From a virus (Duplodnaviria; Caudoviricetes), in IMG/VR virus record IMGVR_UViG_3300032516_000034, positions 1-55,243 of that record: a stretch of 55,243 nt of DNA. One strand, written 5' to 3'. Position 1 is the first letter of the stretch; every line of letters begins with the position of its first letter. A program made the translations under genes and the position numbers. Positions 1 through 37,750 of this stretch are shown one piece after another. Under the pieces are notes generated by a model. The model was not told the DNA's origin, searched no databases, and saw only the letters and a program-made list of their open reading frames with translations.

Positions 1-2721
1 GACGCCACCGTTGACCGTCATATCACTGCCAATGGAAAGCGTGTTGGATTGTACGGTGAGAACAACAGGGGTGGAAGCCGGAATAGATGTGAGTGTGGAA
101 TACCAGACTGCGTTTGTTGTGAAGTCAGAAGCGTCAGCATACCCGCCCATAATCCACAGTTTAGTATCGAAGAATAACGATTGATGCTCGGCTACTGCAT
201 AGCCCCAACCAGCGGCAGCAGTGGCTTGTGTCCAATTGAGACCATCGGTAGAATACCATACGTCGTTTGTAGCCGGATCATAAGTCCAACCGCCTGTTAT
301 CCATATTGCATTTGAGTCAGCAGCACACCCCAAATAGTTTCTAGGCACCCACGGAGCGGCGGCAGTAACCTCAGTCCAGCTTACGCCGTCTGACGAAGAC
401 CAGACAGAATTTGTTGGAAGTACAGCCTCACCGCCCTCGCCCCCGATCACCCACATCTTGTTAGCGAAAGTAACACATCCGAAATGCCCGTCAACTGGCC
501 AACTGGCACCAGCAGTGGCTTGTGTCCAATTAGTACCGTCTGATGAATACCATACATCGTTAGTGTTAATTCCCGAATTTCCACCCATTACCCACATCTT
601 GTTATCAAAAACTACGGCACCATGCCCTCGTCTAACAGACCACTGAGCGGCAGCCGTAGCCATTGTCCAGTTCGTGCCATCAGGCGATGACCATATATCA
701 TTGTAATGGGTCCCTGAATTGTCACCGCCCAATATCCACATCTGATTATTGAAGGTCACAGTACGGAAGTCACTACGCTTACCCCAACTTGCGTTCTCGG
801 TAGCTTGTATCCAATTCGTACCATCAGCCGAATACCAGACATCGTTGGTGAAATCTGCTATACTGTCAGAATACCCGCCCATCACCCACATCTTGTTGTT
901 GAACACGGTGCTGGCGAAATCATATCGTCCCAGCCATCCAGCACCAGCAGTAGCTTCAGTCCAATTAGCACCGCCTGACACCGATGCCAAAGTACCTTCA
1001 CCGATTGTCAGCGACGAAGAATGGGATACGAGGGAGGTAGTTGACGGATCGTAGCTCAATGCTTTCACGCCGCCCATGTAAATGCTGTTTGTGCCGAGAT
1101 ACAGGTCACGGACAGGGAAGTTTGCAGAGCCCACATCATAGGCATTTGAAGCATTAGGGATGATACTTGACGACATGTTCAGATTGCTTGCTGTGTTGGC
1201 TGTGGTAGCATACTGAGCGTTCGTAGACTGATTAGCCACAGAAGCATAATCGGCATTTGTAGAATAAGAGGCAGTACCTGCATTTGTAGAATAAGAGGCC
1301 GTTCCTGCGTTAGTGGCGTAACCAGCAGTACCTGCATTTGTAGAATAAGAGGCCGTTCCTGCGTTAGTGGCGTAACCAGCAGTACCTGCATTTGTAGAAT
1401 AAGAGGCCGTTCCTGCGTTGGTGGCATACTGAGCGTTCGTAGACTGATTAGCCACAGAAGCATAATCGGCATTTGTAGCCGTAGATGCCACAGAAGCATT
1501 TGTAGCATACCCAGCGACACTGGCATTCGTAGCAAACCCAGCCACTGAAGCATTCGTAGCAAACCCAGCCACAGAAGCATTCGTAGCAAACCCTGCGACA
1601 CTGGCATAGGCTACTGCACCGCTCGATGTGATATATCCATTCGTGGAATGATTACCCCAGCCATAGGCAGCGTTCCAGTTTGCCGCACTTTGGATTTTAG
1701 AATCAGCGATTGTACCGTTGAGAATGTTTGTGCCATTCAGATCATGGATGTAGAATCCTGAACCCCGATACCAGATCGATGTGATTGTCCCATCAACCTG
1801 CACATCACCCTGCACCCACAGGTTCGTGTAGGTTGTCCAAATGTTCGTCACATACAGATTTGTGACATAAGCAAACTGTGCATAGAGGTTGGAGACGGTC
1901 AGGGTAGAAAAACTTCCGCTACCGTTCGACACCGTGCCGCCGCCAAGGTTGATGCTCCCAGCACCCCAGTCGCTCACCGATACCGCGCCCCTATTGGTAT
2001 GATTTACCACATTCCTGAAGTAGTTGCTGTCAACACTACCGCCACCAGCCGCTGGTTGCCATGTGCCATCCGCCCGCAGGAATTTGCCAGCATCGGCGAT
2101 AGCGGCGGTGATAAGTCCAGTTGAGCCCGCACCAGCAAACAAGTTACTTGCCCCTATCGTCACATAGGTATTCGTCACGCCGCTTGACGGGGAATACAGC
2201 CATGCCGCCTGAGTAATCATTTGCGTCTTCACGCCATCGTAAAACAGGATCGGTATTTCCTTACCAGTAGAGCTGTCGATCAGTCCATGCACCTGTCCAG
2301 CCAAACTGACACCTGCGGTCAGCAGCAATCCCAACACAGCACCTGCTATCAGCTTTTTGAACCTCTGCTGGGGCTGAAGCCCCGCAGATTCCTGACAAGA
2401 ATCAACATAACTCGATTCTTCCTCGTGGGTTGTTCCAACCCCGAATAAACCAGAGATACTGTGTCCCGCAAGACACCCTGATAAATTCTTACCACAGGCC
2501 GACTTCATCTGGCTATAGCTGTTAAGAAATAGCCTGTAAAGCCGATCAAGGCGAAACGCAAAAGCGGTGGGATCACCGCTAGAGCAATCGAGTGTGTTTA
2601 TGTCTCTGTCTGTACGACAGTGAGATTTATCACACTCTGCCTGTAAGGTTTTATCCCGAGAAGGCGTTTTCTCTCGGGAACTGGCATACCTTGTCAAAGA
2701 ACGATGTCTATACGTTGTCAT
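1..2721 (-). CDS. Large fibre/adhesin-like protein with Kelch beta-propeller and ATNA repeats; runs off the left edge. The N-terminal ~121 codons come from the inserted element
   Basis: Not in the ORF track because there is no stop inside the window. Hand translation of the start, element, Kelch and edge segments gives one consistent frame from ATG 2721 (GGAG upstream) through ...QQRFKKLIAGAVLGLLLTAGVSLAGQVHGL... to ...SIGSDMTVNGGV at base 1. It shares the segment IIPNASNAYDVGSANFPVRDLYLGTNSIYMGG with ORF 25830-26993. Confidence 0.8.
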   Translation of the reverse strand, partial: MTTYRHRSLTRYASSREKTPSRDKTLQAECDKSHCRTDRDINTLDCSSGDPTAFAFRLDRLYRLFLNSYSQMKSACGKNLSGCLAGHSISGLFGVGTTHEEESSYVDSCQESAGLQPQQRFKKLIAGAVLGLLLTAGVSLAGQVHGLIDSSTGKEIPILFYDGVKTQMITQAAWLYSPSSGVTNTYVTIGASNLFAGAGSTGLITAAIADAGKFLRADGTWQPAAGGGSVDSNYFRNVVNHTNRGAVSVSDWGAGSINLGGGTVSNGSGSFSTLTVSNLYAQFAYVTNLYVTNIWTTYTNLWVQGDVQVDGTITSIWYRGSGFYIHDLNGTNILNGTIADSKIQSAANWNAAYGWGNHSTNGYITSSGAVAYASVAGFATNASVAGFATNASVAGFATNASVAGYATNASVASTATNADYASVANQSTNAQYATNAGTASYSTNAGTAGYATNAGTASYSTNAGTAGYATNAGTASYSTNAGTASYSTNADYASVANQSTNAQYATTANTASNLNMSSSIIPNASNAYDVGSANFPVRDLYLGTNSIYMGGVKALSYDPSTTSLVSHSSSLTIGEGTLASVSGGANWTEATAGAGWLGRYDFASTVFNNKMWVMGGYSDSIADFTNDVWYSADGTNWIQATENASWGKRSDFRTVTFNNQMWILGGDNSGTHYNDIWSSPDGTNWTMATAAAQWSVRRGHGAVVFDNKMWVMGGNSGINTNDVWYSSDGTNWTQATAGASWPVDGHFGCVTFANKMWVIGGEGGEAVLPTNSVWSSSDGVSWTEVTAAAPWVPRNYLGCAADSNAIWITGGWTYDPATNDVWYSTDGLNWTQATAAAGWGYAVAEHQSLFFDTKLWIMGGYADASDFTTNAVWYSTLTSIPASTPVVLTVQSNTLSIGSDMTVNGGV
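95..975 (-). repeat. About six Kelch-like repeats (beta-propeller) within the fibre-like gene
   Basis: Recurrent units F(N/D)NKMW(V/I)MGG...NDVWYSxDGTNWTxATxxAxW, with the GG...W spacing typical of Kelch blades. Confidence 0.85.
1180..1625 (-). repeat. Low-complexity tandem repeats encoding (F/Y)ATNA / YSTNAGTA units
   Basis: Near-exact DNA duplications: gcatactgagcgttcgtagactgattagccacagaagcataatcggcatttgtag at about 1208 and 1425, and tandem 54-bp units cagtacctgcatttgtagaataagaggccgttcctgcgtt.... Confidence 0.9.
2357..2445 (-). ncRNA. Putative TnpB omegaRNA (reRNA) scaffold; the guide would be the flank AAAGCTGATAGCAGG... (2356 leftwards)
   Basis: Stem GGGTTG-GAA-CAACCC versus GGCTCG-GAA-CGAGCC in the tnpB copy (compensatory changes), a conserved ACGAG linker, a second stem, and the right-end hairpin. 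GAAC in the first loop is complementary to GTTC just before the terminus. The 5' boundary is uncertain. Confidence 0.7.
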
Positions 2722-2798
2722 TTTCTTTCTCCAGAATCAACAACTGATTTCGCCTAACTGCCGGGGATAAATCCCCGCAGATTGCGGCTCACAGATTG
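2357..2798 (-). mobile_element. 442-bp non-autonomous IS200/IS605-family derivative, sister of the element at 27567-28894
   Basis: The right end (2357-2396) is 40 bp identical to 27567-27606, and 2737-2766 is 30 bp identical to 28834-28863. Both ends have subterminal hairpins. The right end terminates in TCAA with GAAT at the hairpin foot; the left end is preceded by TGAA with CAAT at the hairpin foot. Precise removal restores a reading frame. Confidence 0.92.
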
Positions 2799-2839
2799 TT
2801 CAGACGGCGGCTGCCCTTACGGGCATCCACCTTATCCAC
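2799..2839 (-). pseudogene. Original 5' end of the fibre-like gene, orphaned by the insertion
   Basis: AGGAG-6nt-GTG at 2839 encodes MDKVDARKGSRRL. Joining 2799 to 2356 gives ...CTG AA|A AAG CTG ATA, i.e. MDKVDARKGSRRLKKLIAGAVLGLLLTAGVSLA, in frame. Confidence 0.75.
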
Positions 2840-2880
2840 TCTAGTCTCCTGTTTAACTCGTTTGTTTCGAGTTGGCATCT

Positions 2881-3363
2881 CTACTCCTTACAAGCCCGCA
2901 ATACTGCGGGTAGTTGACCTTCAGCGAGCTTACGGAAAGCCTCTATGGCTTCGTCTGCTTCTTTCTTGTCAACCTCTGCCAAACGCTTTATCAGCTTTTC
3001 CATCAGGGGAAGGGCCATGTAATAAGTGAGCGGTGCGTCCTTGGGGAACTCGACTTCGTGATCGAGGGATATACGGGTGGCAACCATATCGTTCTGGGTG
3101 TGCTCTCTCTCCACCTTTATGCCAGCCGCCAGCTCCTTTTTGTCCACATCGGATTCCTGCAACCCCTTCTCGTTCGCCCTGCCGTAGCACAGGAAATCGG
3201 TAAAAAGCGTAGCCAGCTTATATGCGCAAGCCTCGGCCTTATCCACTTCGATTCCCTGCTTCTCGGCCCACGCATGAAACTTTTTGTCATCGGGGCTCGG
3301 GTTCTCTGTGAAAAATTCCGCAACCGCCTTTTCCGTATCGCTCAATCCGAAATCCAGTGCCAT
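2881..3363 (-). CDS. DUF5661-like phage protein
   Basis: Motif KKELAAGIKVEREHT...ATRISLDH...YY. The start was moved to MALDFG, which has an AAGGAG RBS. Confidence 0.7.
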   Translation of the reverse strand: MALDFGLSDTEKAVAEFFTENPSPDDKKFHAWAEKQGIEVDKAEACAYKLATLFTDFLCYGRANEKGLQESDVDKKELAAGIKVEREHTQNDMVATRISLDHEVEFPKDAPLTYYMALPLMEKLIKRLAEVDKKEADEAIEAFRKLAEGQLPAVLRACKE

Positions 3364-3374
3364 GATGTCTCCTT

Positions 3375-3740
3375 TTACGGCCACACGGTTATGCAACTCA
3401 TTCTCACCCACTGATTGTTGGCGATTGCCCAATAATAGTAGGTTCCGTCAAATGCCCACGTTCCTTGCGTTCCTGCCGAATTGGGCAGTGCTGGCACAGC
3501 CACAGGTGCCGCTGGCACCGCGCCGCCAACAGCAGGATCGGGCACGATACCTGTCAGCGTCAGGTATGCGTATGCGCTCGGCACGGGCAGCCCTGCCACA
3601 ACCTGCCCCTTGACGAAAACACTGGGTGAGCCGCTCAGAACACCAATGACTTCGCCCACCTTGATGCGGCAGAAGTCGAAGCTGTCTTCGTAGTAGATGT
3701 TCCCCAGATAGAAGGACTCATTGCAGGTATAGAGATTCAT
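3375..3740 (-). CDS. Hypothetical, probable virion protein
   Basis: AAGGAG RBS. The C-terminal GTQGTWAFDGTYYYWAIANNQWVR resembles a motif common in phage fibre/structural proteins. Confidence 0.65.
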   Translation of the reverse strand: MNLYTCNESFYLGNIYYEDSFDFCRIKVGEVIGVLSGSPSVFVKGQVVAGLPVPSAYAYLTLTGIVPDPAVGGAVPAAPVAVPALPNSAGTQGTWAFDGTYYYWAIANNQWVRMSCITVWP

Positions 3741-3752
3741 TATGGCTCCTTT

Positions 3753-4091
3753 CTACGATTCTGTCGCCCAGTCGTAACCAGCCGTGCGCTCTTTGCGTCC
3801 ATCGTTGATCTGTGTGGTATTGAGCGGATCGGCAGGCACGGACACAAGTGTCTGATCGCTAACGCTGTTTCTGCCCAGCTTGATAATCCGCACCCTCGTC
3901 ATATCCAACGGGCCGTGTGTTGCCTCGGCAAACACTGGTGTCCCGACGGGAATTTTTCGTTCCAACGGCCAGTTCATATCGTTCGGCAGGCTTGTCGCCT
4001 TTCCCGGCGTAAACATGGTTCGTCCCACTTGCGCGAACTGCTCATGACTAATATCCTTGATCGTATACTCGACTCGTTCATTTGCTGCCAT
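3753..4091 (-). CDS. Hypothetical protein
   Basis: 112-aa ORF with AGGAG RBS, packed in the operon. Confidence 0.7.
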   Translation of the reverse strand: MAANERVEYTIKDISHEQFAQVGRTMFTPGKATSLPNDMNWPLERKIPVGTPVFAEATHGPLDMTRVRIIKLGRNSVSDQTLVSVPADPLNTTQINDGRKERTAGYDWATES

Positions 4092-4106
4092 CGTCGTTCT
4101 CCTGTG

Positions 4107-4400
4107 TTAAGTTCCGAAAACCTGCATCACCTTCAGTATGTCCGCCATATATGGCTTGATGGCCGTGTCCACCAAATCCTTGGCAGCATCCAGTGCGGCA
4201 CGCTGCGGCACGCTATCTGCCTTCACCTTGGGCAGATTCTCATCAATAATCTGTAACGCCGCGAGCATGGAAATCAACGCCTGATCGACATTGCCTAAAG
4301 CATCGTCGTCATCGGGCGCAACAGCCGTCGGCTCGTTCGGCACAATCTCGTCCTGAGCAACAATATTCTCTGCCATTTTGGCTATCCTTTCCTTGTCCAT
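4107..4400 (-). CDS. Hypothetical protein (possible head protein)
   Basis: 97-aa helical ORF tightly packed in the late operon. Confidence 0.7.
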   Translation of the reverse strand: MDKERIAKMAENIVAQDEIVPNEPTAVAPDDDDALGNVDQALISMLAALQIIDENLPKVKADSVPQRAALDAAKDLVDTAIKPYMADILKVMQVFGT

Positions 4401-4403
4401 GTC

Positions 4404-4769
4404 CTACGCTCCTATCGCCTGCCTAAATGTCGGCGGCATTCGGGAAAGCAACGATCTAGCAACAGAAATATTGGCCACCTTGGTTGCCAAATGGCCGTGC
4501 GTCAGCCTCGTCACTATCGCCGATATGCGGGTGTCATTGTCGTTTTTCTTGTCTGTATCCTTATCCGTATCCATATCCCGTTCCTCGTTTGGCCTATCCT
4601 TCGTTCTGAATGGCTTTCTGTCTTCGTCCCTCGGCGGCTTTTGAAACGGCTCCCGATCTCTGATTCCCTTAGACTTGCCGCCCGTATCTTGGATCAAATC
4701 CTTGTCCTTCCGTTCTGTTTGATTCCCACGGGACGCCATGATCGCTTTAGCTATGGATTCCATCAGCAT
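4404..4769 (-). CDS. Hypothetical highly charged protein
   Basis: 121-aa ORF abutting its neighbours, with a K/D/R-rich core. Confidence 0.7.
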   Translation of the reverse strand: MLMESIAKAIMASRGNQTERKDKDLIQDTGGKSKGIRDREPFQKPPRDEDRKPFRTKDRPNEERDMDTDKDTDKKNDNDTRISAIVTRLTHGHLATKVANISVARSLLSRMPPTFRQAIGA

Positions 4770-6254
4770 CTACCGAAGCTCCCTTACCACCAGATTGAAC
4801 TTCCTACCGAGCTGTTGTTGCAACGCTTTGAGCGCGGTGGGGGCCGACCCCTTTGGAATCCTGCCCAGAACCTGTGTCACGGGGGCTTCTCTCCGCTTTT
4901 TCATCTCCTGCTCCTGATTGTATGTCATCGGCGGAGTCAGTCGCTTGGTGCCAGTAATCTGGAAATGGCCATCTTCATACATATCGCCCTGATCGTCACG
5001 GTAGTCAAACCAGACATTCCGATTGATTTCGTTAATGACATCCACATTGAACGGCTGCCAGCCTTCGACTTCGACATTGAACGCTTCAACCGTATAGGAG
5101 TGGCCTGCGGTTTTGGCGGATGCCAGTTCCAAATGGCGGCGGGAAGTCAAGATGAGATTCTTGACATTCACTTTCATCGGCGCGTCCCCATTATCCCACT
5201 GGACTTCCGCCAGAGTCATACCACCCATCGGACGAACAGACTTGACGACGCCTTTCCAGTGTCCCATCTCTCCAAACTCGCCAATACTCCTGAGAAAGTT
5301 ACGAGAGTACATCACACTATCGCCAACTGAAATGTCGATACCTGCAATCGTCGTTGAATATCTGTGAAGTAGTCTTTCACTACGGGGAATTAGATCAAGA
5401 TTCCTCACATCCACTTCTCTCGTCTCTCCGCTATTCCATGCCACTTCCGCCACTGTTCTGCTGCCCACTTGTCTGACTGATTTGACAAGTCCAGTCCAAT
5501 TCTTAACGCTCATCGGATCGCTAATCATTCTCAGATAACTCTGAGAGTATTTCACCAGCTTGCCAACCTGAATCTCGGAATCAGCTACCCTAATAGCGAT
5601 CTCAAACTCGCGTGTCGCGCCGCGTCTGCCGCGCCTGCGCGTAGGCGGCTTCGCCTGCACGAGAAGGTTCACCATCTCCATCATGCTCTGGATCAGGCCC
5701 ATCACGTCCTTCGGGGCCACCTGCCCGTCCTGCTTGATGGTCTTCACTTCGCTCACCAGATCGTTGACTATGGACTCGATTTCGCCCTTCTTGTCTTCGT
5801 CCACTTCGACAGGCTCGCCAGTCGGCTCTTCGCCATCGGGCTCTGCCTCTGGTTCAGCATTTTCGGGCTCAGTGGAGTCGGGCTCGACTTCTTCTACCTC
5901 CTCGGTATCGTCATCGCCTTCCTCATTGGCATCATCCTCGTCCCCTTCGTCTCCCTCGTCCTCAAAAATATCCTCGTCTTCTTTGTCGCCCTTGTCGTCT
6001 TCCTCTCCAGCAGGCTCCTCTGCGTCGCCTGTGGGCTTCGCTTCCTCGGGAGGCTGCTCTGCATCAGGCTTCCCCTCTTCCTCCTGCGGAGCGGCCTCTG
6101 GAGCCTCTTCCTTGTCGTCTGGATCGGCCTTGTCTTTCATCTTGGTTTTGACTTTCTCGACGACCTCTTTCTTCTCGTCTTCGGAAAGTTCGGCAAACCT
6201 GCGAAAAACGCTCCTTGTTGCCACTGCCGCGATAATTAGTCTTTGAATTCTCAT
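4770..6254 (-). CDS. Hypothetical acidic protein with two SH3/KOW-like repeats (possible internal head protein)
   Basis: Start MRIQRL with GAAGGAG RBS. Long E/D tract, followed by a duplicated domain VGxxVxYSxxxLRxI...WxGxVKSVR..G..TxAEVxW...V.V.NL.L. Confidence 0.75.
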   Translation of the reverse strand: MRIQRLIIAAVATRSVFRRFAELSEDEKKEVVEKVKTKMKDKADPDDKEEAPEAAPQEEEGKPDAEQPPEEAKPTGDAEEPAGEEDDKGDKEDEDIFEDEGDEGDEDDANEEGDDDTEEVEEVEPDSTEPENAEPEAEPDGEEPTGEPVEVDEDKKGEIESIVNDLVSEVKTIKQDGQVAPKDVMGLIQSMMEMVNLLVQAKPPTRRRGRRGATREFEIAIRVADSEIQVGKLVKYSQSYLRMISDPMSVKNWTGLVKSVRQVGSRTVAEVAWNSGETREVDVRNLDLIPRSERLLHRYSTTIAGIDISVGDSVMYSRNFLRSIGEFGEMGHWKGVVKSVRPMGGMTLAEVQWDNGDAPMKVNVKNLILTSRRHLELASAKTAGHSYTVEAFNVEVEGWQPFNVDVINEINRNVWFDYRDDQGDMYEDGHFQITGTKRLTPPMTYNQEQEMKKRREAPVTQVLGRIPKGSAPTALKALQQQLGRKFNLVVRELR

Positions 6255-8585: not shown

Positions 8586-11500
8586 CTATTCCTTACTCTC
8601 AAGTTCGGACACCTTTTCCACGATCTGCTCCACATCGTTCTCGTCCGCTTCAGGCGGTAGGCTCTCTGCTATTGCCTCGGCGAGCTGGTCTGTCTTGCCC
8701 TTGGGCTCGCCATCAGCCTCCTCTGCTTTATCGCCAACGGGTGGAACAGGGGAGCCCTCTGATTCGCCCGTCGGGGCAGTGCCCGGTTCGCCTTCCAAAT
8801 CTGTAAAACCCTGCTGAAAGCCACCGCCCCCGCCACCCATGCCGCCAGCCTGATCTTGTTGTTGCGGTTTCATCTTGACGCCCAGATACCGAGCCACGCG
8901 CTCGACGATGTCAGTCGCATCGACGAGCTTGCGGCCAACTTCCGCGTTGACTTCTTCCGACATACGGTTAGATGTGGCATCCTTCACCGTGAACAACTGA
9001 TTCCGCAACTTGTTATTGATTTCGTCCACGTTCAAATTGAACAGCTCGTACAGTATGTCAACAGGCAAGCTGCCCTTCTGATACAACTGGAATAGCGAAT
9101 CAAACACTTCCGCATTATCCCTGATCGTTAGACGGTTGAATCCAACCTGCGGGTAGATGTATTTCCTGATACCGTTCTTGCCCTCTTCATACCAACCGTG
9201 CGCCTCGCAAATAGGGATGAACAGTTTCTTCTCGATGAAGTTTTTGAGAATCTCTCTGCTCATCAGGAACATGGTATTCAGAATTTCAACCGTTACCTTG
9301 CCACCCGTGAATGTTCCCTCTCCCGTAAGAAGCTCGCGAGTCACACCAAGAGCGGCAAACACCTGATTCTCAATCCGCTCATACTCGCGGTCAAGATCAA
9401 TCAACCTGTCGGTTGTGCCAATCTGCTCCCAGTTGATTTCATAGTTGGTGATGACGGAATACTCGGGATCGAGATACGACAAATCAACCTGTGTTCTGAG
9501 AGCATCCACCTCTTCGGGCATAAGTCCGGGAGCCGAAATCAAATTCTTCGGCGTCATGTTGCGGCTCGCCAGCGAGAGCTGACAGTATTTGTAATGCTCT
9601 TTCTGAAGCATCGGCACCAACACGCGCTCCAATACAGATACGCCCAAGTCCATATACGGACTTCGACGACGAGCAAAATGATGCACAAAACTGCCCGTTG
9701 TCGGATCGGTGTCCATAACAATACAGCCCTCGGTGCGCACCATTTCAACCAGCTCCTGTGGCAGATTCTCCAGAATTTTCTGTTCCAGATCGGCCCGTGC
9801 GCAAGTATTGCCTTCCATCGCCGATGTAGCCGACATCCCAGCAACAATTGTCGCGCCATCTCGGATCATCTTAACGAGCCGCTCGGGGCGATATTCGACA
9901 CGCTTGTTGTCGCTGAACGGATACTGGAATATGTAAACCTCTTCGGGAGGAAGCATAACAGCGCGGCTCCACATCTTCTTTTCGTCGGACCATTCGAGAA
10001 AAACGTAACAGTTGTGTGTGCGAATTTCGTTTGTGCAATATGTGTGCTCCCCGTCTACCTCAAAATTGTAAACATACCCATCGTGGTATTTTCTTCCGAT
10101 GTTGTTCACCTTAAAATAGAATTTACCATCTTTGATTTCGTATGTGAATGTACGATGTTCGCTCGAAGAACCATCAATTTCAATTTCTTTTACACACCCC
10201 TCGGTTAAAGCGCGAATATGATCGGGTTCTGAAACTTTAAGATAGTATATTTCCGAATTGGCTGTTCCGCCCCGTGGCATCTCTATGTCACGCTGTTTTG
10301 ACTTGCCAAAGCAGAACGGAATTCCGCATCTTATTCCCAACTGGAATAGTTGGTGCATTAGCGAATCATTTGTATTTGTAATTCCTGCCACGGCCTCTCT
10401 ATCAGTTTTGGATATGAATCCATCGCTATCAATCATACCTCGCAGCAACCATATTTGCTTACTGGGGGGAAGTTCCATTACCCACTTGGGAATTCGCTTG
10501 CTCTTACAGTCGTATCCAAAATGGTGTGCCCACCACGAACAAAAGATCGGATCATTCACCAGAACATGGAACAGATCATCATTGCATATTCCCCCAATCC
10601 CCTTTTCAAATCCATCGCAGCCGAATACAGACTCCATTACGGAACACAACCTATTAACCTGTGGCGTATCTCTAGCAATACAAATATCAAATGTGGAATA
10701 CTGATAAGATGTTGGCCTCTTATTGTTCCAAATCCATCCATCACCCATCCAATATCCCAGCAAATACATGAATTCGTCATCCACGCAAACAGATACCATG
10801 TCACTATCAAATGTTTTGTTGAATACTCGACCATAAAAATCAGGAGCGTTCTTTTTCTCAGAAACGGGGAACCAACGGATTGAACTGCCGTGATGGCCCC
10901 CGCGTCCTCTTTCTGTGCGGATGACCCCCCTCTTTCTGAGTGAATACGCAACATTCCTCATTCTTACAATATTGTCAGTGCCGAGAATCTTTGAAACGCT
11001 CTCGCATGTCATATCCACCGGTTCGACTAAAGAAGACATCCACGCAATAAGCTTATCTTTTATTTCATTGGTGGTATCAGAACCACCAGTTGGGGTTTTA
11101 TGAGATACGAATACCTGAATTCCATTATTAAGATTCTTGACCTCAACAGAATCATACCTATTAGACAAGATACCTAAGATTTCGGAACGAATATCATATT
11201 CTTCAATATCCTTAACCTCTGTCGAAAATGCGATTCCTATGTAATCATCGTTCCTTATTTCTTTGGCGGGAACCATTTTTTCTTGCCCGTTTCTCAGTAT
11301 GAAAACAGGATGTTCCGATGTCGGTGTGAATTCAATAGCTGGAAGTCTTGCGATATCCAAGTCAATGAGCCATTCCGAAACATGCCTGCGAGAAATAGCA
11401 TTAACTCGGCCATACTGTCCAGATGCAGTTAAAACCCTGTCATTCTCTCGTATCTGACAAATAGGCATCATTCCTTGTTCTGTGTGGACCAGATGGCCTG

Positions 11501-13304
11501 CGGGGAAGCAATTTCCGATCATATTATATTCCCACAGAATATCTTGGCACAGATCAAATGCGTTGATCGCGTCCAACTGATAAGTGAAGAATTCCTGTAT
11601 TTCCTTCTGTAATGCCCTTTTGGCCTTCGGCATCTTTGGCATATTAAGCGTTATCTTGCTCATCGGCAGATCGGTGAGAAGCTCAAGAGCACGACCAATA
11701 TAAGCATCACTTCGACAATTATGCGTAACCATTCCATTACACATGTACGACTTTTCGTCGCCCTCGGCATCCAGTTCAAGATTGTAAACGATATCGTCTT
11801 TTTCCATGTACGATATTTTGTCTATCTTGAATGCTGCATATCCGTTGATAAAAAATGCACAATGCTTGTCACCGTCTGAACCAGAATCAGACCACTTAGT
11901 AGACCCAGTGATTAAAGAATCGGCACTCCAAGAAGGTATTGTTATGTGCCATATTGGATTGTCGCTCCACTTATCATTCTTTCTTTCATACTTAGCAATA
12001 CGACACATCACCCCTGCTGAAATGGCAAGCAATTGAACTTGCGATGCTAAATCATTTGATGCTGTCGCTATTAGGAGTTTGCCCTTATTGCTTCCATTAA
12101 GATACTGATGCCCGTCGCCTTCAGCATATGCGAGCAAAAAGGATTTCTTTGCCTCTATAGTTGAGTCAAGCAAATCCTTGGATAGTTTTTTCTCTGCACT
12201 GTATGAACCAACATGTAAATGACAAAATTCACCCACATTCCTACCACTCACAAGTATCTCAATGTGGTTTTCTCTCCTGCGAACAATGCTCCCGTTCACA
12301 CCGAATACAGATGACGATAGTTCAAGAATTTTCTTACCAACACTGTTTTCTTCGTCCTTGTGCAATGTAAAGGAAACACCAATAGGAACCTTTGTCTTTT
12401 CTTGATGCCATTTCCATCCATTAACCTTAACATCTCCATCATCACTTGTGGTATTAACACACCTCATACCCCAAACAATAGAGCCTTCGGATGCGTAATA
12501 TCCAAGAAATGAGGTTTGCTCACAAGTCATCTGGCTGAATTTTACAGGCTTATATGGAGCCATTAAAACATAATCACCAACTTCTATTCTGTCAGCATTT
12601 ACCCATTCAGGTGAAAAATCCATCTGATCTCTGTAATGACCCTCATCCTTTTTTACCTGTGATTTTTTCAATATGTAAAAAGGATGTTCGTGTGTCACCA
12701 ATGCGGTATTTTGCAAACACCATGCACTAATCTCCACTGCCTTGGAGTCCTTACATTGTCTCTCGATTTTTTCAGCGACACGACGAACACTACCTACACC
12801 CGTTATCACCTCATCACCAACCTGAACATCTTTAATGGATTTCAATGTTCCATCGGACATTAGAACCTGTCCTAAGTGGTTATCATCCAAGTAGTAGCAA
12901 AAATACCTGTACCAGCTATATTTTTCAGCAAGCGTTACTGGCCAATACAGCAAGCCACCGTTCTGCTGATTCATCATCAAAAAATATGTCGGCACATCGT
13001 ATGCACCCGTGCGGTCGCCAAGGCCGAATGCGTAGGAACTTCGGTAGGTATCCAGCTTATAGCCCGACGAATACGGTGCGCTCATGTGAACAAAGTCGAT
13101 CATCATGCCTGCTTGCCGTTCGCGTCCGCCGCCTTCGCCAAAACCGCCAGCTCCCGTTGCTATCCTCTTCGCTATTCTGGCCTTCACTGGATCATACTTG
13201 CCCACGATTGCCCTTGGACGCTTCATACCCGCCACAACATCGGTGGACACAGCATCCTGCGTTGAAGCGACTATCGGATTTCTCACTATTTTTTGCTTTG
13301 CCAT
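8586..13304 (-). CDS. Portal protein containing two inteins (about 678 aa after splicing)
   Basis: Lies downstream of terminase. The exteins have portal-like segments (YIGRALELLTDLPMSK, YNMIGNCY, HFARRRSPYMDLGVSVLER, ALGVTRELLTGEG) and an acidic Gly/Pro tail. Confidence 0.8.
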   Translation of the reverse strand: MAKQKIVRNPIVASTQDAVSTDVVAGMKRPRAIVGKYDPVKARIAKRIATGAGGFGEGGGRERQAGMMIDFVHMSAPYSSGYKLDTYRSSYAFGLGDRTGAYDVPTYFLMMNQQNGGLLYWPVTLAEKYSWYRYFCYYLDDNHLGQVLMSDGTLKSIKDVQVGDEVITGVGSVRRVAEKIERQCKDSKAVEISAWCLQNTALVTHEHPFYILKKSQVKKDEGHYRDQMDFSPEWVNADRIEVGDYVLMAPYKPVKFSQMTCEQTSFLGYYASEGSIVWGMRCVNTTSDDGDVKVNGWKWHQEKTKVPIGVSFTLHKDEENSVGKKILELSSSVFGVNGSIVRRRENHIEILVSGRNVGEFCHLHVGSYSAEKKLSKDLLDSTIEAKKSFLLAYAEGDGHQYLNGSNKGKLLIATASNDLASQVQLLAISAGVMCRIAKYERKNDKWSDNPIWHITIPSWSADSLITGSTKWSDSGSDGDKHCAFFINGYAAFKIDKISYMEKDDIVYNLELDAEGDEKSYMCNGMVTHNCRSDAYIGRALELLTDLPMSKITLNMPKMPKAKRALQKEIQEFFTYQLDAINAFDLCQDILWEYNMIGNCFPAGHLVHTEQGMMPICQIRENDRVLTASGQYGRVNAISRRHVSEWLIDLDIARLPAIEFTPTSEHPVFILRNGQEKMVPAKEIRNDDYIGIAFSTEVKDIEEYDIRSEILGILSNRYDSVEVKNLNNGIQVFVSHKTPTGGSDTTNEIKDKLIAWMSSLVEPVDMTCESVSKILGTDNIVRMRNVAYSLRKRGVIRTERGRGGHHGSSIRWFPVSEKKNAPDFYGRVFNKTFDSDMVSVCVDDEFMYLLGYWMGDGWIWNNKRPTSYQYSTFDICIARDTPQVNRLCSVMESVFGCDGFEKGIGGICNDDLFHVLVNDPIFCSWWAHHFGYDCKSKRIPKWVMELPPSKQIWLLRGMIDSDGFISKTDREAVAGITNTNDSLMHQLFQLGIRCGIPFCFGKSKQRDIEMPRGGTANSEIYYLKVSEPDHIRALTEGCVKEIEIDGSSSEHRTFTYEIKDGKFYFKVNNIGRKYHDGYVYNFEVDGEHTYCTNEIRTHNCYVFLEWSDEKKMWSRAVMLPPEEVYIFQYPFSDNKRVEYRPERLVKMIRDGATIVAGMSATSAMEGNTCARADLEQKILENLPQELVEMVRTEGCIVMDTDPTTGSFVHHFARRRSPYMDLGVSVLERVLVPMLQKEHYKYCQLSLASRNMTPKNLISAPGLMPEEVDALRTQVDLSYLDPEYSVITNYEINWEQIGTTDRLIDLDREYERIENQVFAALGVTRELLTGEGTFTGGKVTVEILNTMFLMSREILKNFIEKKLFIPICEAHGWYEEGKNGIRKYIYPQVGFNRLTIRDNAEVFDSLFQLYQKGSLPVDILYELFNLNVDEINNKLRNQLFTVKDATSNRMSEEVNAEVGRKLVDATDIVERVARYLGVKMKPQQQDQAGGMGGGGGGFQQGFTDLEGEPGTAPTGESEGSPVPPVGDKAEEADGEPKGKTDQLAEAIAESLPPEADENDVEQIVEKVSELESKE
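10011..11510 (-). mobile_element. Portal intein 2 (500 aa) with LAGLIDADG endonuclease
   Basis: IGN|CFPAGHLVHT...PTSEHPVF...YLLGYWMGDG...LLRGMIDSDG...VYNFEVDGEHTYCTNEIRTHN|C. Confidence 0.92.
11718..12899 (-). mobile_element. Portal intein 1 (394 aa) with LAGLIDADG endonuclease
   Basis: YRYF|CYYLDD...VLMSDG...VTHEHPFY...FLGYYASEG...FLLAYAEGDG...VYNLEL...YMCNGMVTHN|C. Confidence 0.9.
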
Positions 13305-13974: not shown

Positions 13975-16900
13975 TTATATTCCCGTTGTTAACCGCCGTG
14001 CCAGCATCCCCGGTATACTCACACCGCTCTGGGTGCGCCGCCTGAAGCCATCCAGCCCACGGGGATGCTCTCCATGCTTTTTCAGTTTATTCAGCCGATA
14101 TGTAGCTGCTGTTTCCTGCCGTGGCATACCATCAGGCGTAAACATTCTTGCCGAAACACCCATAGAACCTCCAGCCCCCGTCGCAACAGCATAGGGCCGT
14201 TCGCTCTGATTCTTATGGCACAACCAGACCGCTCTTATCACAGCCTCACAGATATCATCGTGCGCCCCACGTCGATTCGGTGCCCGCACATCAATTTTAT
14301 TCTTCGCTTTTTTCTCGGCCTCCAGCGTAAGAAGTTCTGGAATAAGAACAGGGTGATTCGGAAATTCAAGCAGTTTCTCAGAATAGAGCGTTTTGGCAAG
14401 CTGATAAACATCGCTGTTCAGCGTGTCAGTGAACTGCTCCATCTCAAACTGTTTCAGACGTTGCGACTTCAGAATCTCAGCGAGCGCATAGCCATTATGT
14501 TGATCGAAAATCCCCGCCTTGATTCCGAACCACTGACATAACTCCTTTATCTCTTCAACTATTTCTGCAATGGAAAGCAGTTCTCTCGTCGCGTATTTCC
14601 TGCATCCCGTGTACAAGCCATTTTCAAATTCCCACACATCGGACGACGCCGAAAACCAGACATTCGCATAATCAACCACTATTCTTTGGTTTTGCTTGTT
14701 TTTGTGTACGATACCGATTGCGGTGCCGTCATTTTTGAATCCCAAGTCTATGCCCATGTAATACGAAACATCGTATATGCCGCGAAGCTTTATCGGCTCC
14801 TGAGTGACACACTTTCGGAACTCGGTTTCGTCATCAATCCATGCGGTGATGGTGTCGGAGAACTCGCCGCCGTATTCACACATGAAACCAACCCTGTCTC
14901 TGCGACGGGCCGCAGCCAAGATTTCCGTCGGGATTGTCGGGTTCATCATAGCTGAATACATTTTGAACATCAGCGTGAAATCTTTTTCTTGGAAAGACTG
15001 CTGGAACCTCTCGTAAAACGCACCATACTTCGCGTAAGGCGACGATATGCAGACAACCTTTCCATCACGCCTGAATGAAGCGATTGACGGCGTAAGAGCC
15101 TTATATACTTCCGAACCGCTGAACCTGCCGTTGTTGTCTATGAAATGGGCCATCTCATCCATGATTACTACGATGGCATTTCTTCCGCGCAAGCTGTTGG
15201 ATGCGCATCCACCAGCCATCAGTGTAATATTCGCTTTCGGTTTACCGTAGAGTTTCAGATCGGCATCCGACTGCAAATCGAAATATGTCATTGTGGAATG
15301 TAAACACCGTTCCTTTATGAACGGACACTGCCTAGCCATGTTGTGAATCATGTCGAAAAGGCCACCAGCCTGATCGTCTGCTGGGGCAACATTCATAATG
15401 TAAATCGGAGTATTGGCAGGAAAGCCGTAATACTTCGACGGATCGCCCCGCTTGAGCAGTTTATACAGCTCGTAGTTGGAAATGAATGAAGCCTCTGACG
15501 AATTGTGAGAAAGAATGTCTCCGCCAATAATATGAGTACCAGATACGCATAAATCAACCGTTTTTCTCAGTCCGACAGGGCTCACTGATTCTACTTTGTC
15601 CCATCGAACATCAGATGTCGCCATATCCATCAAGAACTTATCCCCGGTATTGATTCCGTATTGCAGAACCTTTCTCCTACTTGGGGAATACTGCATATGC
15701 AGTCTTTCATTGTTCCCTACACCGTGTTTTCCCATAACATCGGCACATGACAACCCGCCGTCAGTCATTGCCGCCCTAACACGATTCCAAATCCCCCTTG
15801 GAGCAGAATCAAATTCGCTCTTGGATTCCACTCGCAATCTCGCCATATTCACGACCTTAGATACGGCATCTTCTTTTGCGAAGATTCCTATCTCTTTCGC
15901 AAATATCTCAATACTGTCCCTCATTACGATGTCCAAGCCCCAAGAATCAAACACCTTTCCTTTGCACTTTGTTTTTCTGAAACGAACAACAGAGTGGACG
16001 CCGAATTTCAACAAGAGATGTCGAACACCATCAATCATCTTCTTTGATGACGAAGCGTAGCCTATAGATGACTTGGGCACTCCCTTGTGCCCCTCCTGTA
16101 CTCGGCCCGCAACGGTAGCCCACCCATCGCAAGCAAAAAGCCTAGACAGAAAGATTGCGGTCTCTTCCTTAGACGCTTTGAATATACAATCTGGTACTTC
16201 CTTATCTATGGATTTTTTCCCAATACACCCCGCGCCTCTTAGCCACTCCATAACAGCATTTTTTTGACTCCCATCTTGCTTGAATCTACCCGATGCCTTT
16301 AACACATTGTAACCATAATGAAATGAGGTCTTTCCTAGAGGTTTAACCTTGCACATCGGAAATTCTTGTTGAATCAAATGAGTAAAGTCTGCAAGTTTAG
16401 TCGGACAAGCGATTGTCATAGTCGGACGTTCTGTCGTGCCGCCATCACCTTGAAAATAGCCCAGTAATGCCGCCCTGCCCAGACCAATGCCCCCTCTCCC
16501 AAAGAGGCCAACATTATTTGAGATAGCTACCCTGTCTCCCTTTTTCAATTCAGAAAGACTCACAAAACTAGGTTTTTCTTCCCCATCCTTCCACACAAGA
16601 TATGGATGGTTTCCCGATGATATTTCAAATAACCCCCTCTTCGTCTCTAATTCAAAACATCCAACATCTCCATTGTCCCATATTTCAAAATCATGCGTAA
16701 CTTTGCTTTTCAGGGTTTCAGGATCATAGGTTAATATTCCGATATTAGCACAACGATGTTTTCTTTCAAGCAGGTCGCCAAATGTTATAGAGCCCTCCGT
16801 TGTAGCGATACGATCTTCCATAGCCCGACATTTCCCGCCACGCCTGCCAATAGGCATTACCAGCTCTTGAAATATTTTTCCTTCTGTCGTATCGGTATTA

Positions 16901-17166
16901 CATCTTCCTTCTTCATACAAAAATTTCAGGAAGGATTTTTCGGTGAAGGTATAGAGTATCTTTTCATTGATGACATCTGGAACTTTGATGTCCTGCTTTG
17001 TGTCGTCAAGAGGCAGGCCGTAAAACGCCTTGAGTGAAAAACGCTGGACTGGGAACAGCTTGATGTTTAGGCCCCACGGAGCTTCCACGAACGATACAAT
17101 GTCAACAATCTCCGTATTGCCCGAAATGAACTCTTTCGCTATTTCGGCAATGAGGTTATTCGGCAT
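13975..17166 (-). CDS. terL: Terminase large subunit with intein (about 620 aa after splicing)
   Basis: Walker A GRRGGK|S split by the intein, Walker B VVIMDE, coupling motif ISSP, RNase H-like MGIDLG and HDD. Confidence 0.92.
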   Translation of the reverse strand: MPNNLIAEIAKEFISGNTEIVDIVSFVEAPWGLNIKLFPVQRFSLKAFYGLPLDDTKQDIKVPDVINEKILYTFTEKSFLKFLYEEGRCNTDTTEGKIFQELVMPIGRRGGKCRAMEDRIATTEGSITFGDLLERKHRCANIGILTYDPETLKSKVTHDFEIWDNGDVGCFELETKRGLFEISSGNHPYLVWKDGEEKPSFVSLSELKKGDRVAISNNVGLFGRGGIGLGRAALLGYFQGDGGTTERPTMTIACPTKLADFTHLIQQEFPMCKVKPLGKTSFHYGYNVLKASGRFKQDGSQKNAVMEWLRGAGCIGKKSIDKEVPDCIFKASKEETAIFLSRLFACDGWATVAGRVQEGHKGVPKSSIGYASSSKKMIDGVRHLLLKFGVHSVVRFRKTKCKGKVFDSWGLDIVMRDSIEIFAKEIGIFAKEDAVSKVVNMARLRVESKSEFDSAPRGIWNRVRAAMTDGGLSCADVMGKHGVGNNERLHMQYSPSRRKVLQYGINTGDKFLMDMATSDVRWDKVESVSPVGLRKTVDLCVSGTHIIGGDILSHNSSEASFISNYELYKLLKRGDPSKYYGFPANTPIYIMNVAPADDQAGGLFDMIHNMARQCPFIKERCLHSTMTYFDLQSDADLKLYGKPKANITLMAGGCASNSLRGRNAIVVIMDEMAHFIDNNGRFSGSEVYKALTPSIASFRRDGKVVCISSPYAKYGAFYERFQQSFQEKDFTLMFKMYSAMMNPTIPTEILAAARRRDRVGFMCEYGGEFSDTITAWIDDETEFRKCVTQEPIKLRGIYDVSYYMGIDLGFKNDGTAIGIVHKNKQNQRIVVDYANVWFSASSDVWEFENGLYTGCRKYATRELLSIAEIVEEIKELCQWFGIKAGIFDQHNGYALAEILKSQRLKQFEMEQFTDTLNSDVYQLAKTLYSEKLLEFPNHPVLIPELLTLEAEKKAKNKIDVRAPNRRGAHDDICEAVIRAVWLCHKNQSERPYAVATGAGGSMGVSARMFTPDGMPRQETAATYRLNKLKKHGEHPRGLDGFRRRTQSGVSIPGMLARRLTTGI
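15502..16830 (-). mobile_element. Terminase intein (443 aa) with LAGLIDADG endonuclease, inserted in the P-loop
   Basis: GGK|CRAMEDRIATT...SGNHPY...LLGYFQGDG...FLSRLFACDG...TVDLCVSGTH...ILSHN|S. Confidence 0.92.
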
Positions 17167-22577: not shown

Positions 22578-23843
22578 CTACACCGCCACGGCTTTACCAT
22601 CATCTATTTTAATATGCTTGCCCCATTTAACGGGCCACTCGCTTTTCTCAAGCTCTGTCGTCAGCACCCAGAGAGTCGGTATCCTATACCGCTTCTCGAT
22701 CTTCGGTGCATAAAAGTCTGTAAAGTAGACCACAGCATCATGCTTCCCTTCAACTTCTTTCAGCGCGGGCTCCAGTTCGGTGCCGCCTCGGCCATGCACT
22801 TTGCCAGTGAATTTGCCTTTGAACGGATATGTTGCGCACACCCGACAATCCGCTTCATACACTGTAATCTTTGCTCCGTTCTTCCATATCCATCGAATTT
22901 CGTTGAAGAATATTTTGAGCATCTGATCGCTGATACTGCCGCTCGTGTCCACCGCCACGGCCAGATTCAGCACATCTTCTTTGCGTGTGCCGGGCCTCGT
23001 GGCGAACCGCTTGCTGATGCGCTTCACCGTGTAATCCAGATTACTCTCAGCGCACGAAGCGCAGAACATCCTAAGCACCTTGCCCCACGGGACAATGGCT
23101 CTTTCCTTCTTGAGCAAATTTTCAATCTGATCGATGATTTCGCCGGGAATGTTGCCGTAATTCTTCCCGCACAAATCCTGCGCCTTCCGCACGATGTCCT
23201 TGGCGAACTCCTTCGCCACCAGATCATCCTTCAGGTCTTCCCATTTGGAGTGCCCCGACATCACATTTGACAGAACGCCTCCGATGCCAAGTTTGCCCTC
23301 GGCGCACTGCTTTTTGTATTCGGGATTATCCTGTAAGTGCGCGTAATACCACATCGCCGATTTATTCAACGGCAGGCCATAGTTCTCAGGATGAACATAC
23401 TCACCCGGCAGGGTATTCTTTGGGATCAGAGAATTAACGACACAGTCCTCCGCCACGCTACCCCGAGTCCTGTCAGCAAAGTGTAGAAACAAATGGCCAA
23501 AAATTATGTGACAGATTTCGTGCTCAATTACGGCGAGCATCTGCGCCCAGCCCTTTTCCCTGTCACCAGCACTGGCCAGAATGTCCGTAAAGAAGTCCAC
23601 ATTGAAATACATCTTGATAAATCGCTCTCCCGCAATTCTGCCCACTCCCGCCGTCTTGCAGCTATCTTCGGACGAAACGTAGACCTTCTGGAGTTGCTGG
23701 ACGATATGTCCGTAAAACTCCTTGTGACGGGCAAGATGGACAATGCCCTTTATCAGTTCTTTTTCGATCTTGGCCCTGACTGCGACAGCGACCTTCGGAT
23801 TGCTACGCATGTCGGCGACTTGTGTTGATGACGAGTCCACCAT
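22578..23843 (-). CDS. DUF2201-type metallopeptidase plus VWA domain protein
   Basis: HEICHxxFGH zincin motif, MIDAS DTSGS, GRGGT and YFTD. Confidence 0.88.
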   Translation of the reverse strand: MVDSSSTQVADMRSNPKVAVAVRAKIEKELIKGIVHLARHKEFYGHIVQQLQKVYVSSEDSCKTAGVGRIAGERFIKMYFNVDFFTDILASAGDREKGWAQMLAVIEHEICHIIFGHLFLHFADRTRGSVAEDCVVNSLIPKNTLPGEYVHPENYGLPLNKSAMWYYAHLQDNPEYKKQCAEGKLGIGGVLSNVMSGHSKWEDLKDDLVAKEFAKDIVRKAQDLCGKNYGNIPGEIIDQIENLLKKERAIVPWGKVLRMFCASCAESNLDYTVKRISKRFATRPGTRKEDVLNLAVAVDTSGSISDQMLKIFFNEIRWIWKNGAKITVYEADCRVCATYPFKGKFTGKVHGRGGTELEPALKEVEGKHDAVVYFTDFYAPKIEKRYRIPTLWVLTTELEKSEWPVKWGKHIKIDDGKAVAV

Positions 23844-27566: not shown

Positions 27567-27668
27567 TTGAACCTCTGCTGGGGCTGAAGCCCCGCAGATT
27601 CCTGACGGGTATTTGACATATCACGCGACATGCCGTATTTCCCTCTCGTGGCTCGTTCCGAGCCAGAC
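27567..27668 (-). ncRNA. Putative omegaRNA overlapping the tnpB 3' end; guide AAGAGCACTACCGAAGG...
   Basis: GGCTCG-GAA-CGAGCC stem, second stem and right-end hairpin; covaries with the 442-bp copy. The 5' boundary is uncertain. Confidence 0.7.
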
Positions 27669-28676: not shown

Positions 28677-28801
28677 TTTACTTTCCGTGGCCTATCCCAG
28701 TAGGGGCTTTTACATTTGGGACAAATCCTGATTTCACTCTGGCGTGGAATCCAGTGATGTCCACACCGCTCGCAACCGACTTTCTTGATTTCAATTTTCA
28801 T
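28673..28801 (-). CDS. 42-aa zinc-ribbon protein coupled to tnpB
   Basis: MKIEIKKVGCERCGHHWIPRQSEIRICPKCKSPYWDRPRKVK; ATGA overlap with tnpB. Below the ORF-track length cutoff. Confidence 0.8.
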   Translation of the reverse strand: MKIEIKKVGCERCGHHWIPRQSEIRICPKCKSPYWDRPRKVK

Positions 28802-28837
28802 ACCTATAAACATACCTCATCGGTATAGGTGTGTCAA
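28802..28837 (-). promoter_or_regulatory. Sigma70-like promoter of the tnpB element with an overlapping inverted repeat
   Basis: TTGACA-17nt-TATGTT, 7 nt before the ATG (leaderless-like). ACCTATA-N15-TATAGGT brackets the -10. Confidence 0.65.
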
Positions 28838-28895
28838 CAACTGATTTCGCCTAACTGCCGGGGTTAAAACCCCGCAAATTGCGGCTCAGGGCTGT

Positions 28896-37622: not shown

Positions 37623-37750
37623 TTCTTGCGTCTCAGTTTATTCAGTCGCTCCATGTGTTCCCTGCGTCTTTGACGCTCTTCCTTGGTAAGAGTTTTCGGA
37701 ATGCCTTTTCCAAGTCTACCAAGCTCTTGAGCTGCTTTATTCAATGTCAT
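37619..37750 (-). CDS. 43-aa basic helical protein coupled to tnpB
   Basis: MTLNKAAQELGRLGKGIPKTLTKEERQRRREHMERLNKLRRKK; ATGA overlap with tnpB. Confidence 0.75.
   Translation of the reverse strand: MTLNKAAQELGRLGKGIPKTLTKEERQRRREHMERLNKLRRKK

Follow-up and report, generated by a model that had tools for sequence, protein, structure and literature searches.

The linear IMG/VR virus record IMGVR_UViG_3300032516_000034 (Caudoviricetes; 55,243 bases, estimated to be 26% complete) was analyzed over its full length, referred to below as the window. It carries on its minus strand a 442-nucleotide (nt) insert that is a known kind of mobile element, a PATE-like member of the IS200/IS605 family, located in the predicted signal-peptide coding region of a gene for a Kelch-repeat protein and accompanied by a tnpB-bearing partner in the same phage genome. 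The insert uncouples the native start of this gene, while a chimeric open reading frame (ORF) of more than 907 codons exists behind a phage-typical Shine-Dalgarno (SD) sequence and ATG; judging from its sequence, this chimeric ORF is plausibly translated. The best explanation, which we consider probable as a whole, is that the insert is a deleted and diverged derivative of a tnpB/omegaRNA family and that the leader it adds to the gene is a relic and not a device.

The element occupies positions 2357 to 2798 and consists, in this order, of a left end, a relic ORF, an omegaRNA-like 3′ part, and a right end. On the minus strand, the interrupted gene runs through ...CGT CTG AA into CAATCTGTGAGCCGCAAT and the left hairpin, and the right hairpin is followed by AGGTTCAA and then by AAAGCTG... 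of the gene. The TGAA target and left cleavage site (2799 to 2802), presumed to be the transposon-adjacent motif (TAM), is kept in the flank without target duplication. The left end (2758 to 2784) comprises the guide CAAT (2784-2781) and an imperfect hairpin with a bulged G (2780-2758) located 18 nt from the cleavage point, and the right end (2357 to 2391) comprises the guide GAAT (2391-2388), a hairpin with a bulged A (2387-2365), and the cleavage site TCAA (2360-2357). These two subterminal hairpins, both imperfect and similar to each other, are in direct, not inverted, orientation. Their DNA folds are predicted at -10.5 kcal/mol for the left end and -10.7 kcal/mol for the right end (z-score of -3.31 for the latter), and a pattern for such hairpins has 4 occurrences in the window versus 0.00 expected from 100 shuffles.

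The ends of the insert match those of a full-length, tnpB-bearing partner of 1,328 nt (27567 to 28894, minus strand), which was absent from the first-pass annotation. Identity is 95% over 55 nt at the left end (28888-28834 of the partner) and 100% over 40 nt at the right end (27606-27567). TGAA lies directly 5′ of each copy, and TCAA closes each; the four bases on the 5′ side of the hairpin foot are CAAT at the two left ends and GAAT at the two right ends. In the register of IS608, three Watson-Crick pairs form at either end: CAAT with T, G, and A of TGAA on the left, and GAAT with T, C, and A of TCAA on the right. The G/C difference between the guides is mirrored by a C/G difference between the cleavage sites. 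The hairpin-to-cleavage spacing on the left is 17 nt in the full copy, 1 nt shorter than in the insert; on the right it is 8 nt. Because these end features define the IS200/IS605 family, the boundaries of the element are fixed apart from any reading-frame argument, and the direct hairpins, the TGAA target, and the guide/cleavage pairing all uphold the initial view of the insert as an HUH-type IS200/IS605 mini-element. The Y1 (HUH) transposase TnpA (PF01797) has no match in the record, itself an estimated quarter of a genome, and the insert is a non-autonomous member of the PATE-like kind.

The end architecture closely follows that of IS608 from Helicobacter pylori, for which the pairing of guides with cleavage sites (left, TTAC with AAAG; right, TCAA with GAAT) and the location of the cleavage sites 19 nt 5′ of the left hairpin and 10 nt 3′ of the right one are described in PMC5934647 and PMC3201880. 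As in that element, the hairpins are imperfect, subterminal, and have a bulged base, there is no target duplication, the right-end combination GAAT...TCAA is identical, and the left guide, 4 nt 5′ of the hairpin foot, pairs with the target. Unlike IS608, as described there, the insert uses TGAA (guide CAAT) instead of TTAC (guide AAAG), has spacings of 18 nt on the left (19 nt in IS608) and 8 nt on the right (10 nt in IS608), and is not accompanied by a visible tnpA in the window.

The interrupted gene is the last one on the minus strand, is open at base 1 of the window, and lies downstream of the genes for the terminase and the portal protein. Its severed 5′ end (2789 to 2878) encodes a basic n-region, as a stump of 29 or 16 amino acids (aa) depending on the start codon. 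One candidate start, GTG 2839, is preceded by AGGAG with a 6-nt spacer; another, in-frame ATG 2878, missing from the first-pass annotation, is preceded by AAGGAG with a 5-nt spacer and lies 2 nt past the stop codon of the upstream gene. The early claim that the insert disconnects the native start is correct: 442 mod 3 = 1, and with the insert present the native frame terminates at TGA 2791-2789 inside the left end. Equally correct is the claim that exact removal of 2357-2798 yields a coherent signal-peptide-like N terminus. Excision fuses ...ARKGSRRL via a junction Lys codon to KLIAGAVLGLLLTAGVSLA/GQ in frame, and in the rebuilt sequence an n-region, an h-region, and an SLA-type c-region can be read. 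This N terminus is a predicted signal peptide that the insert splits between the basic n-region and the hydrophobic core.

The body of the gene (1 to 2356) encodes the h-region, the SLA/GQ site, an orphan N-domain, 9-aa ATNA-type repeats, and a Kelch beta-propeller, and its 785 codons downstream of the insert are intact. Pfam detects only Kelch in the product, all 8 of its PDB matches are Kelch proteins, and its PHROG match is a family without known function. A protein search returned 19 matches, which cover 8 to 31% of the query and all fall in the repeat part. Of the six homologues read, two start with signal peptides, so export fits this protein family. These data give no support to the former designation of the gene as encoding a fiber or receptor-binding protein; a signal peptide, which would be unusual for a virion fiber, fits better with a secreted or surface protein. 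Searches with the N-terminal part of the gene or its upstream neighbor as the query found no relatives that could serve as an uninterrupted orthologue, and INPHARED phages gave no match. The segment coding for the ATNA-type repeats (1203-1607) contains 54-nt tandem repeats (2.9 copies, 99% matches) within a longer 27-nt periodic array and may be a recently expanded or contraction-prone segment of the fiber type.

With the insert in place, an alternative start is available inside it. An element-borne GGAG (2732-2729) is followed, after a 7-nt spacer, by ATG 2721-2719 (the whole start signal spanning 2719 to 2732) and a 121-codon stop-free leader (2357 to 2721), which is in phase with the host gene and runs through both the omegaRNA-like region and the right-end hairpin. 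The chimeric ORF from ATG 2721 encodes 907 aa and remains open past the window end; its first upstream in-frame stop is TGA 2739-2737. The initial description of an element with its own SD, ATG, and in-phase open frame is thus accurate. The three sense frames of the insert contain 5, 12, and 1 stops, and 121 codons stay open by chance with a probability of 0.001 (200,000 mononucleotide shuffles). There are 39 GGAG-N5-9-ATG sites on the coding strand of this phage versus 3 on the opposite one, and ORFs of 80 codons or more start at 23 of the 39; since this signal is so strongly linked to gene starts, ATG 2721 is a plausible start. In the predicted RNA fold, the SD sequence is in a loop and the UG of the AUG is in a 7-bp stem, which leaves the start codon partly buried. 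At the other end of the leader, the right end supplies an Arg, in addition to the junction Lys, just ahead of the intact h-region and cleavage site.

An internal hairpin followed by a T run had been proposed to terminate transcription within the insert. A 7-bp hairpin followed by TTTGCGTTTC does exist at 2580-2563, where it may be the 5′ stem of the omegaRNA, but it is no commoner than in shuffled sequence (1 found versus 1.8 ± 1.7 expected), and scans for terminators and promoters gave nothing above shuffles. A search of positions 1-6000 against Rfam at E ≤ 1 produced only two chance-level matches, neither to an intron family, and no RNA run that holds this stretch is among the 22 listed runs. 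The chimeric ORF is probably translated to some degree.

The origin of the open frame is best seen in the 3′ part of the insert. The omegaRNA-like structured region (2357 to 2580) has two stems upstream of the right-end hairpin that are kept via compensatory changes: in an alignment of six sequences, 10 of the 36 predicted pairs are changed on both sides. The 3′ 264 nt, the part in which tnpB elements have their omegaRNA scaffold, fold far more stably than shuffled sequences in the insert (z-score of -4.17) and in the full copy (z-score of -5.34). The region matches no Rfam family, and the alignments and z-scores support the early mention of an omegaRNA in the form of an omegaRNA-like relic of a tnpB 3′ end. 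At the DNA level, the insert matches the resident full copy in the ends only; once its 3′ end is aligned to that of the full copy and to those of four related viral loci, homology is apparent over the last ~120 to 200 nt. The SACGKNLSGCLAG...GVGTTHEEE encoded by the insert aligns in frame to SACGAVHDRDINS...LGTSHERE of the full copy, so the open frame appears to be the ancestral tnpB frame in which the catalytic DRD has become degenerate. Of the two TnpB-like remnants named earlier, GTTHE indeed aligns to GTSHE of the full copy, whereas the homology of DRDIN (2608-2594) is uncertain. In the DNA alignments, the counterpart of the tnpB RuvC-III codons is not this DRDIN but a degenerate SGCLA after SACG; DRDIN, about 130 nt upstream of it, could be another relic or a chance match.

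Comparison of the right ends shows how such a frame could come to leave the element. The tnpB of the full copy stops 54 nt before the right tip, and 5 of 10 related loci have a tnpB-type frame that ends near the right end, four of them 44 to 45 nt before it. In the fifth (L009), tnpB ends in ...KEESAGL-stop, with the TAG located in the loop of the right-end hairpin and in the same phase as ...QESAGLQ of the insert. Both elements of the window have CTTCAG in this loop instead of CTTTAG, and this C in place of T lets the frame read out of the element; the last 40 nt of the insert are stop-free in all three sense frames. In the insert, 78 nt separate the left tip from the ATG, which comes just after the conserved left end; in the full copy, the first ORF begins 95 nt from the left tip. 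Most simply, a related element with a tnpB that reached the right end would have lost an internal segment in frame.

Put together, these observations suggest the following course of events. The insert would derive, by internal deletion and divergence, from a tnpB/omegaRNA element in the family of the full copy 25 kb away, and it would have landed by the single-strand “peel-and-paste” route, with a Y1 TnpA supplied in trans, 3′ of TGAA in the 5′ end of the Kelch-propeller protein gene, at a point exactly between the basic n-region and the hydrophobic core of the signal peptide. The 3′ part of the leader would be the old tnpB frame that overlapped the omegaRNA. The product would be a pre-protein with a 121-aa cytoplasmic extension before the intact h-region and cleavage site, and its translation would be in competition with omegaRNA folding, TnpB binding, and TnpB processing. 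The orientation of IS200/IS605 insertions is linked to the direction of replication. All three IS605-type elements on this 55-kb fragment (the 442-nt insert, the 1,328-nt tnpB copy, and a second tnpB at 36468-37622) are on the same strand as almost all genes. Sense orientation is expected from the strand-specific mechanism of the family, which leaves the 1-in-3 phase match as the one feature to be ascribed to chance or to selection on the phage.

Several observations weigh against this reading. The first 73 codons of the leader resemble no TnpB (no significant match to the 7 TnpBs of the family, with a best BLASTP E value of 0.61), and the probability that they would be open, if the sequence were random, is about 0.017; that they are open nevertheless points to a recent deletion or to something that keeps the frame open. 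If the SGCLA-DRDIN alignment is right, the relic has diverged much without acquiring a stop, which is unexpected for free decay. The sole genotype in many samples is the insertion-bearing one, which, if the gene is important, argues for its expression. No parent element of the mini-element was found in the searches described below, and there is no TnpA in the window.

The population data come from sediment sequencing runs. At least 0.90 of the sampled words are held by 12 of the 22 listed runs, and 10 of these 12 are possible sources of the record. In a run that is not flagged as a possible source (X13), single contigs bridge both junctions (2165-2535 and 2625-2892), with 94 to 192 nt on each side and at most one difference. 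The form with the insert is the only one seen across runs, and the insert is real and dominant in the samples. Logan contigs break at the element ends, which are repeated in the community. The joint across the insert was absent from the contigs of all 4 runs searched, although contigs drop rare variants, and the 30-nt upstream flank has no match in metagenome contigs.

Fixation of the insert could have a cause in the biology of the family. According to PMC10055086, TnpB and omegaRNA of the IS605 family cut the empty donor joint (TAM plus flank), and the element is restored by recombination. The empty site here would be TGAA followed by the h-region codons (AAAGCTG...), and the occupied site carries TCAA, one base different. 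By analogy, TnpB-guided re-cutting of empty TGAA+AAAGCTG... sites could keep even a costly insert fixed. This homing step is uncertain because the partner TnpB lacks the canonical RuvC-II Glu, a further point against the relic explanation as a whole.

An alternative account, unlikely but with evidence of its own, sees the insertion as rescued at the level of the phage: the start within the element would give a pre-protein that is targeted by the intact h-region and cut by signal peptidase at SLA/GQ, so that the mature protein would remain unchanged. The location of the insertion point in the n-region, with the h-region and c-region unharmed, is what such a rescue would need, and the Arg encoded by the right end together with the junction Lys keeps a positive charge before the h-region. 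The phage-typical start signal, the uninterrupted 785 downstream codons, the signal peptides of two of the six homologues, and the dominance (possibly exclusive) of the insert form across runs all agree with it. On the other hand, the stretch is held by no RNA run, and the intact ORF may reflect only a recent insertion. The leader includes an omegaRNA structure, subject to TnpB binding and processing of the kind described in PMC10690162, and the terminator-like hairpin, and export with a 121-aa extension is conjectured from sequence. A stronger version, in which the relic start and stop-free frame constitute a built-in translational bypass and the pre-protein is exported and trimmed to the native mature protein, appears rather doubtful to us. 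It takes export and trimming to continue because the insert sits in the n-region of a cleavable signal peptide; as an evolved trait, such a bypass has no support, since the element is single-copy and its leader is conserved nowhere.

The suggestion of the first-pass annotation that the element limits its own damage by translational fusion, keeping a ribosome-binding site, an ATG, and a stop-free frame that buffer intragenic insertions in place of splicing of the IStron kind, looks very improbable after the searches for other copies. Exact words of 23 to 28 nt from the interior of the mini-element had no occurrence in IMG/VR viral contigs and none in metagenome contigs. The hairpin pattern of the family retrieved 10 viral loci, all of them right ends of related tnpB elements, and the interior was matched in none of the 10. 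A scan of five related virus records in their entirety, at ≤2 mismatches, found no second element in any of them, each record having 1 or 2 right-end hairpins. Loose ends of sediment-run contigs place the same element ends in several other contexts, with different interiors. The leader has no relatives at E ≤ 0.001 among 1.84 billion protein representatives, and its Pfam scan gave nothing below E = 0.06. The shuffling result for the 121-codon frame, the right end that is open in all three frames, and the documented in-frame fusions of MITEs (miniature transposable elements with inverted repeats) and Rickettsia palindromic elements (RPEs) (PMC10969869, PMC5896051) are what this proposal has in its favor. 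However, in full-length relatives the stop lies 17 to 54 nt short of the right end, no more than one phase in three could ever be of use, translating the omegaRNA is at odds with its guide function, only a single copy is known, and the open frame is accounted for by descent from tnpB.

Similarly remote is the other proposal, an excision switch in which precise excision and re-insertion by TnpA would toggle between the native N terminus and an extended or disabled one. Precise excision is established for the family (PMC3201880), and in this case it would restore the frame exactly. This claim fared no better than the previous one: neither a joined form in the contigs of the 4 runs nor a Y1 transposase in the window was found, and TnpB homing, if active, would erase empty sites (PMC10055086). 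Neither of these nulls carries much weight, given that rare variants are lost from contigs and that the record is estimated to cover only 26% of the genome. Finally, a repeat-induced chimera that placed the element in the gene during assembly, conceivable given the repeated occurrence of the element ends in the community, at which Logan contigs break, can be practically dismissed, since the independent X13 contigs cross both junctions and the boundaries conform to the TGAA/TCAA rule, with the flanks joining in frame.

Among known systems, the closest to the deleted tnpB derivative proposed here are the PATE-like elements that accompany tnpB elements with shared ends, such as those of the ISGst family in Geobacillus (Meers et al., PMC10055086). 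Like these, the insert has no protein gene, has the end architecture of a tnpB partner in the same genome, keeps a TAM-type target at its left flank, and would need TnpA in trans. Unlike the Geobacillus elements as described in that paper, it is found in a phage and inside a coding region, its interior did not arise simply by deletion from the resident partner, with which it shares the ends alone, and a 121-codon relic frame with a start of its own has stayed open in it.

RPEs and other intragenic MITEs form in-frame fusions with their host genes (PMC10969869), as do the QMITEs of Coxiella (PMC5896051). The similarity to the insert lies in a small mobile DNA within an ORF that has its own open frame continuous with that of the host protein. 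In contrast to the insert, the elements described in these sources belong to multicopy families with conserved peptides and leave the frame unbroken, whereas the insert is single-copy, is 3n+1 in length, breaks the native frame, and replaces the start where they would add a segment within the protein. With regard to the multiple copies, conserved peptide, and in-frame bias of RPE-type elements, we found no further copies of the insert and no protein relatives.

IStrons combine a group I intron with an IS605 or IS607 element, and TnpB binds and processes its own transcript into omegaRNA, which blocks competing uses of the RNA (PMC10690162). By analogy, a conflict of this type would apply to ribosomes reading through the omegaRNA scaffold of the insert. 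Both cases involve a tnpB/omegaRNA-type transposon in a gene, and in both the restoration of gene expression competes, or in the insert would compete, with the omegaRNA function. Unlike the IStrons presented there, the insert has no intron in the Rfam scan, and any rescue would act at translation and not at the RNA level. Keyword searches of an open-access library turned up no description of an IS605-type mini-element that gives a start codon to a split gene.

The partner element is inserted directly after the stop codon of ORF 28896-29249: its TGAA is at 28898-28895, and the TGA of this motif is the stop codon. Its left-end and right-end hairpins are at 28877-28855 and 27597-27575, respectively. 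It encodes a 42-aa double-CXXC zinc-ribbon protein (28801-28673, with weak Pfam zinc-ribbon matches only), whose stop overlaps the start of the following 351-codon gene (28676-27621) as ATGA. The product of the latter has Pfam matches above cutoffs to the Cas12f1-like TNB domain (PF07282, 6e-14) and to OrfB_IS605 (PF01385, 3.2e-11) and belongs to phrog_506, “transposase” (1.1e-70); these matches identify the gene as tnpB. This TnpB and those of three related loci (L006, L011, and L013) have IGIDPG at RuvC-I and lack the canonical RuvC-II Glu, with IYFSDDNF or IAFS[SK]DNI in place of I-x-I-E-D-L, while DRD(I/V)N is kept; all four have a Glu 9 to 10 residues before the first CXXC. The Fanzor-like “Ealt” TnpBs described by Yoon et al. 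(PMC10711439) combine DPG with a Glu six residues before the zinc finger, a combination that is exceedingly rare according to that source, which places pro-Fanzors only in cyanobacteria. Because the spacing misfits the pattern given there, the partner-type TnpBs may be nuclease-dead or may use another acidic residue.

The second tnpB of the window (36468-37622, minus strand; 384 aa) is canonical, with IEDL and DRDINAA present and a PF07282 score of 82 bits, and its ends show no relation to the ends of the other two. It, too, is preceded by a small ORF, coding for a 43-aa basic peptide (about 37619-37750, minus strand), with an ATGA overlap. The small ORFs before the two tnpBs may encode accessory regulators similar to the Arc proteins that are reported for IS605 elements in bioRxiv 10.64898/2026.09.24.754181.

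Elsewhere, a screen of one genome each of 185,579 species for the family hairpin gave a single match, on a contig of a metagenome-assembled genome of “Candidatus Hydrogenedentes” (L016). This locus is a full tnpB element with a 3′ end nearly identical to those of viral loci L004 and L008, which hints weakly at the host range of the family. One of the five related virus records that were scanned, L017, has a solo hairpin of the right-end type between two genes (about 1500-1522), without tnpB nearby; it adjoins a 488-aa Gly-rich protein with a signal-peptide-like N terminus.

Nearly all long ORFs of the record are on the minus strand. The large terminase gene (13978-17166) and the portal gene (8589-13304) are among them; both are unusually long and have large N-terminal parts without explanation. 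The 1,572-aa portal ORF matches portal proteins only at residues 1110-1386, with a weak match to the anaerobic ribonucleotide reductase family at 598-703, and the 1,063-aa terminase ORF matches only at 518-993. These two ORFs could be fusions, intein-containing, or misjoined. The product of 22581-23843 (minus strand, 421 aa) is labeled an HNH endonuclease by PHROGs (phrog_1314, 1.8e-54), whereas Pfam finds DUF2201 VWA-like and metallopeptidase-like domains instead, and the phrog_1314 label looks unreliable.

This phage genome thus offers a natural pair, a tnpB element located one base after a stop codon and a gene-less relative in a coding region, that shares ends and target motif and opens questions of the reporter type. 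These are whether a gene can accommodate an IS605-type insert when no intron is involved, whether ribosomes moving through an omegaRNA disturb the making of guides, and whether signal peptides readily accept insertions in their n-region. Should the chimeric ORF go unused, the case would be one of plain insertional disruption, in which a selfish element has become fixed in a phage population. If the translational bypass is real, the insertion would leave no phenotypic trace in the protein, would directly oppose the omegaRNA function of the same transcript, and would represent a third way, besides IStron splicing and intergenic targeting, for IS605-type elements to reside in coding DNA.

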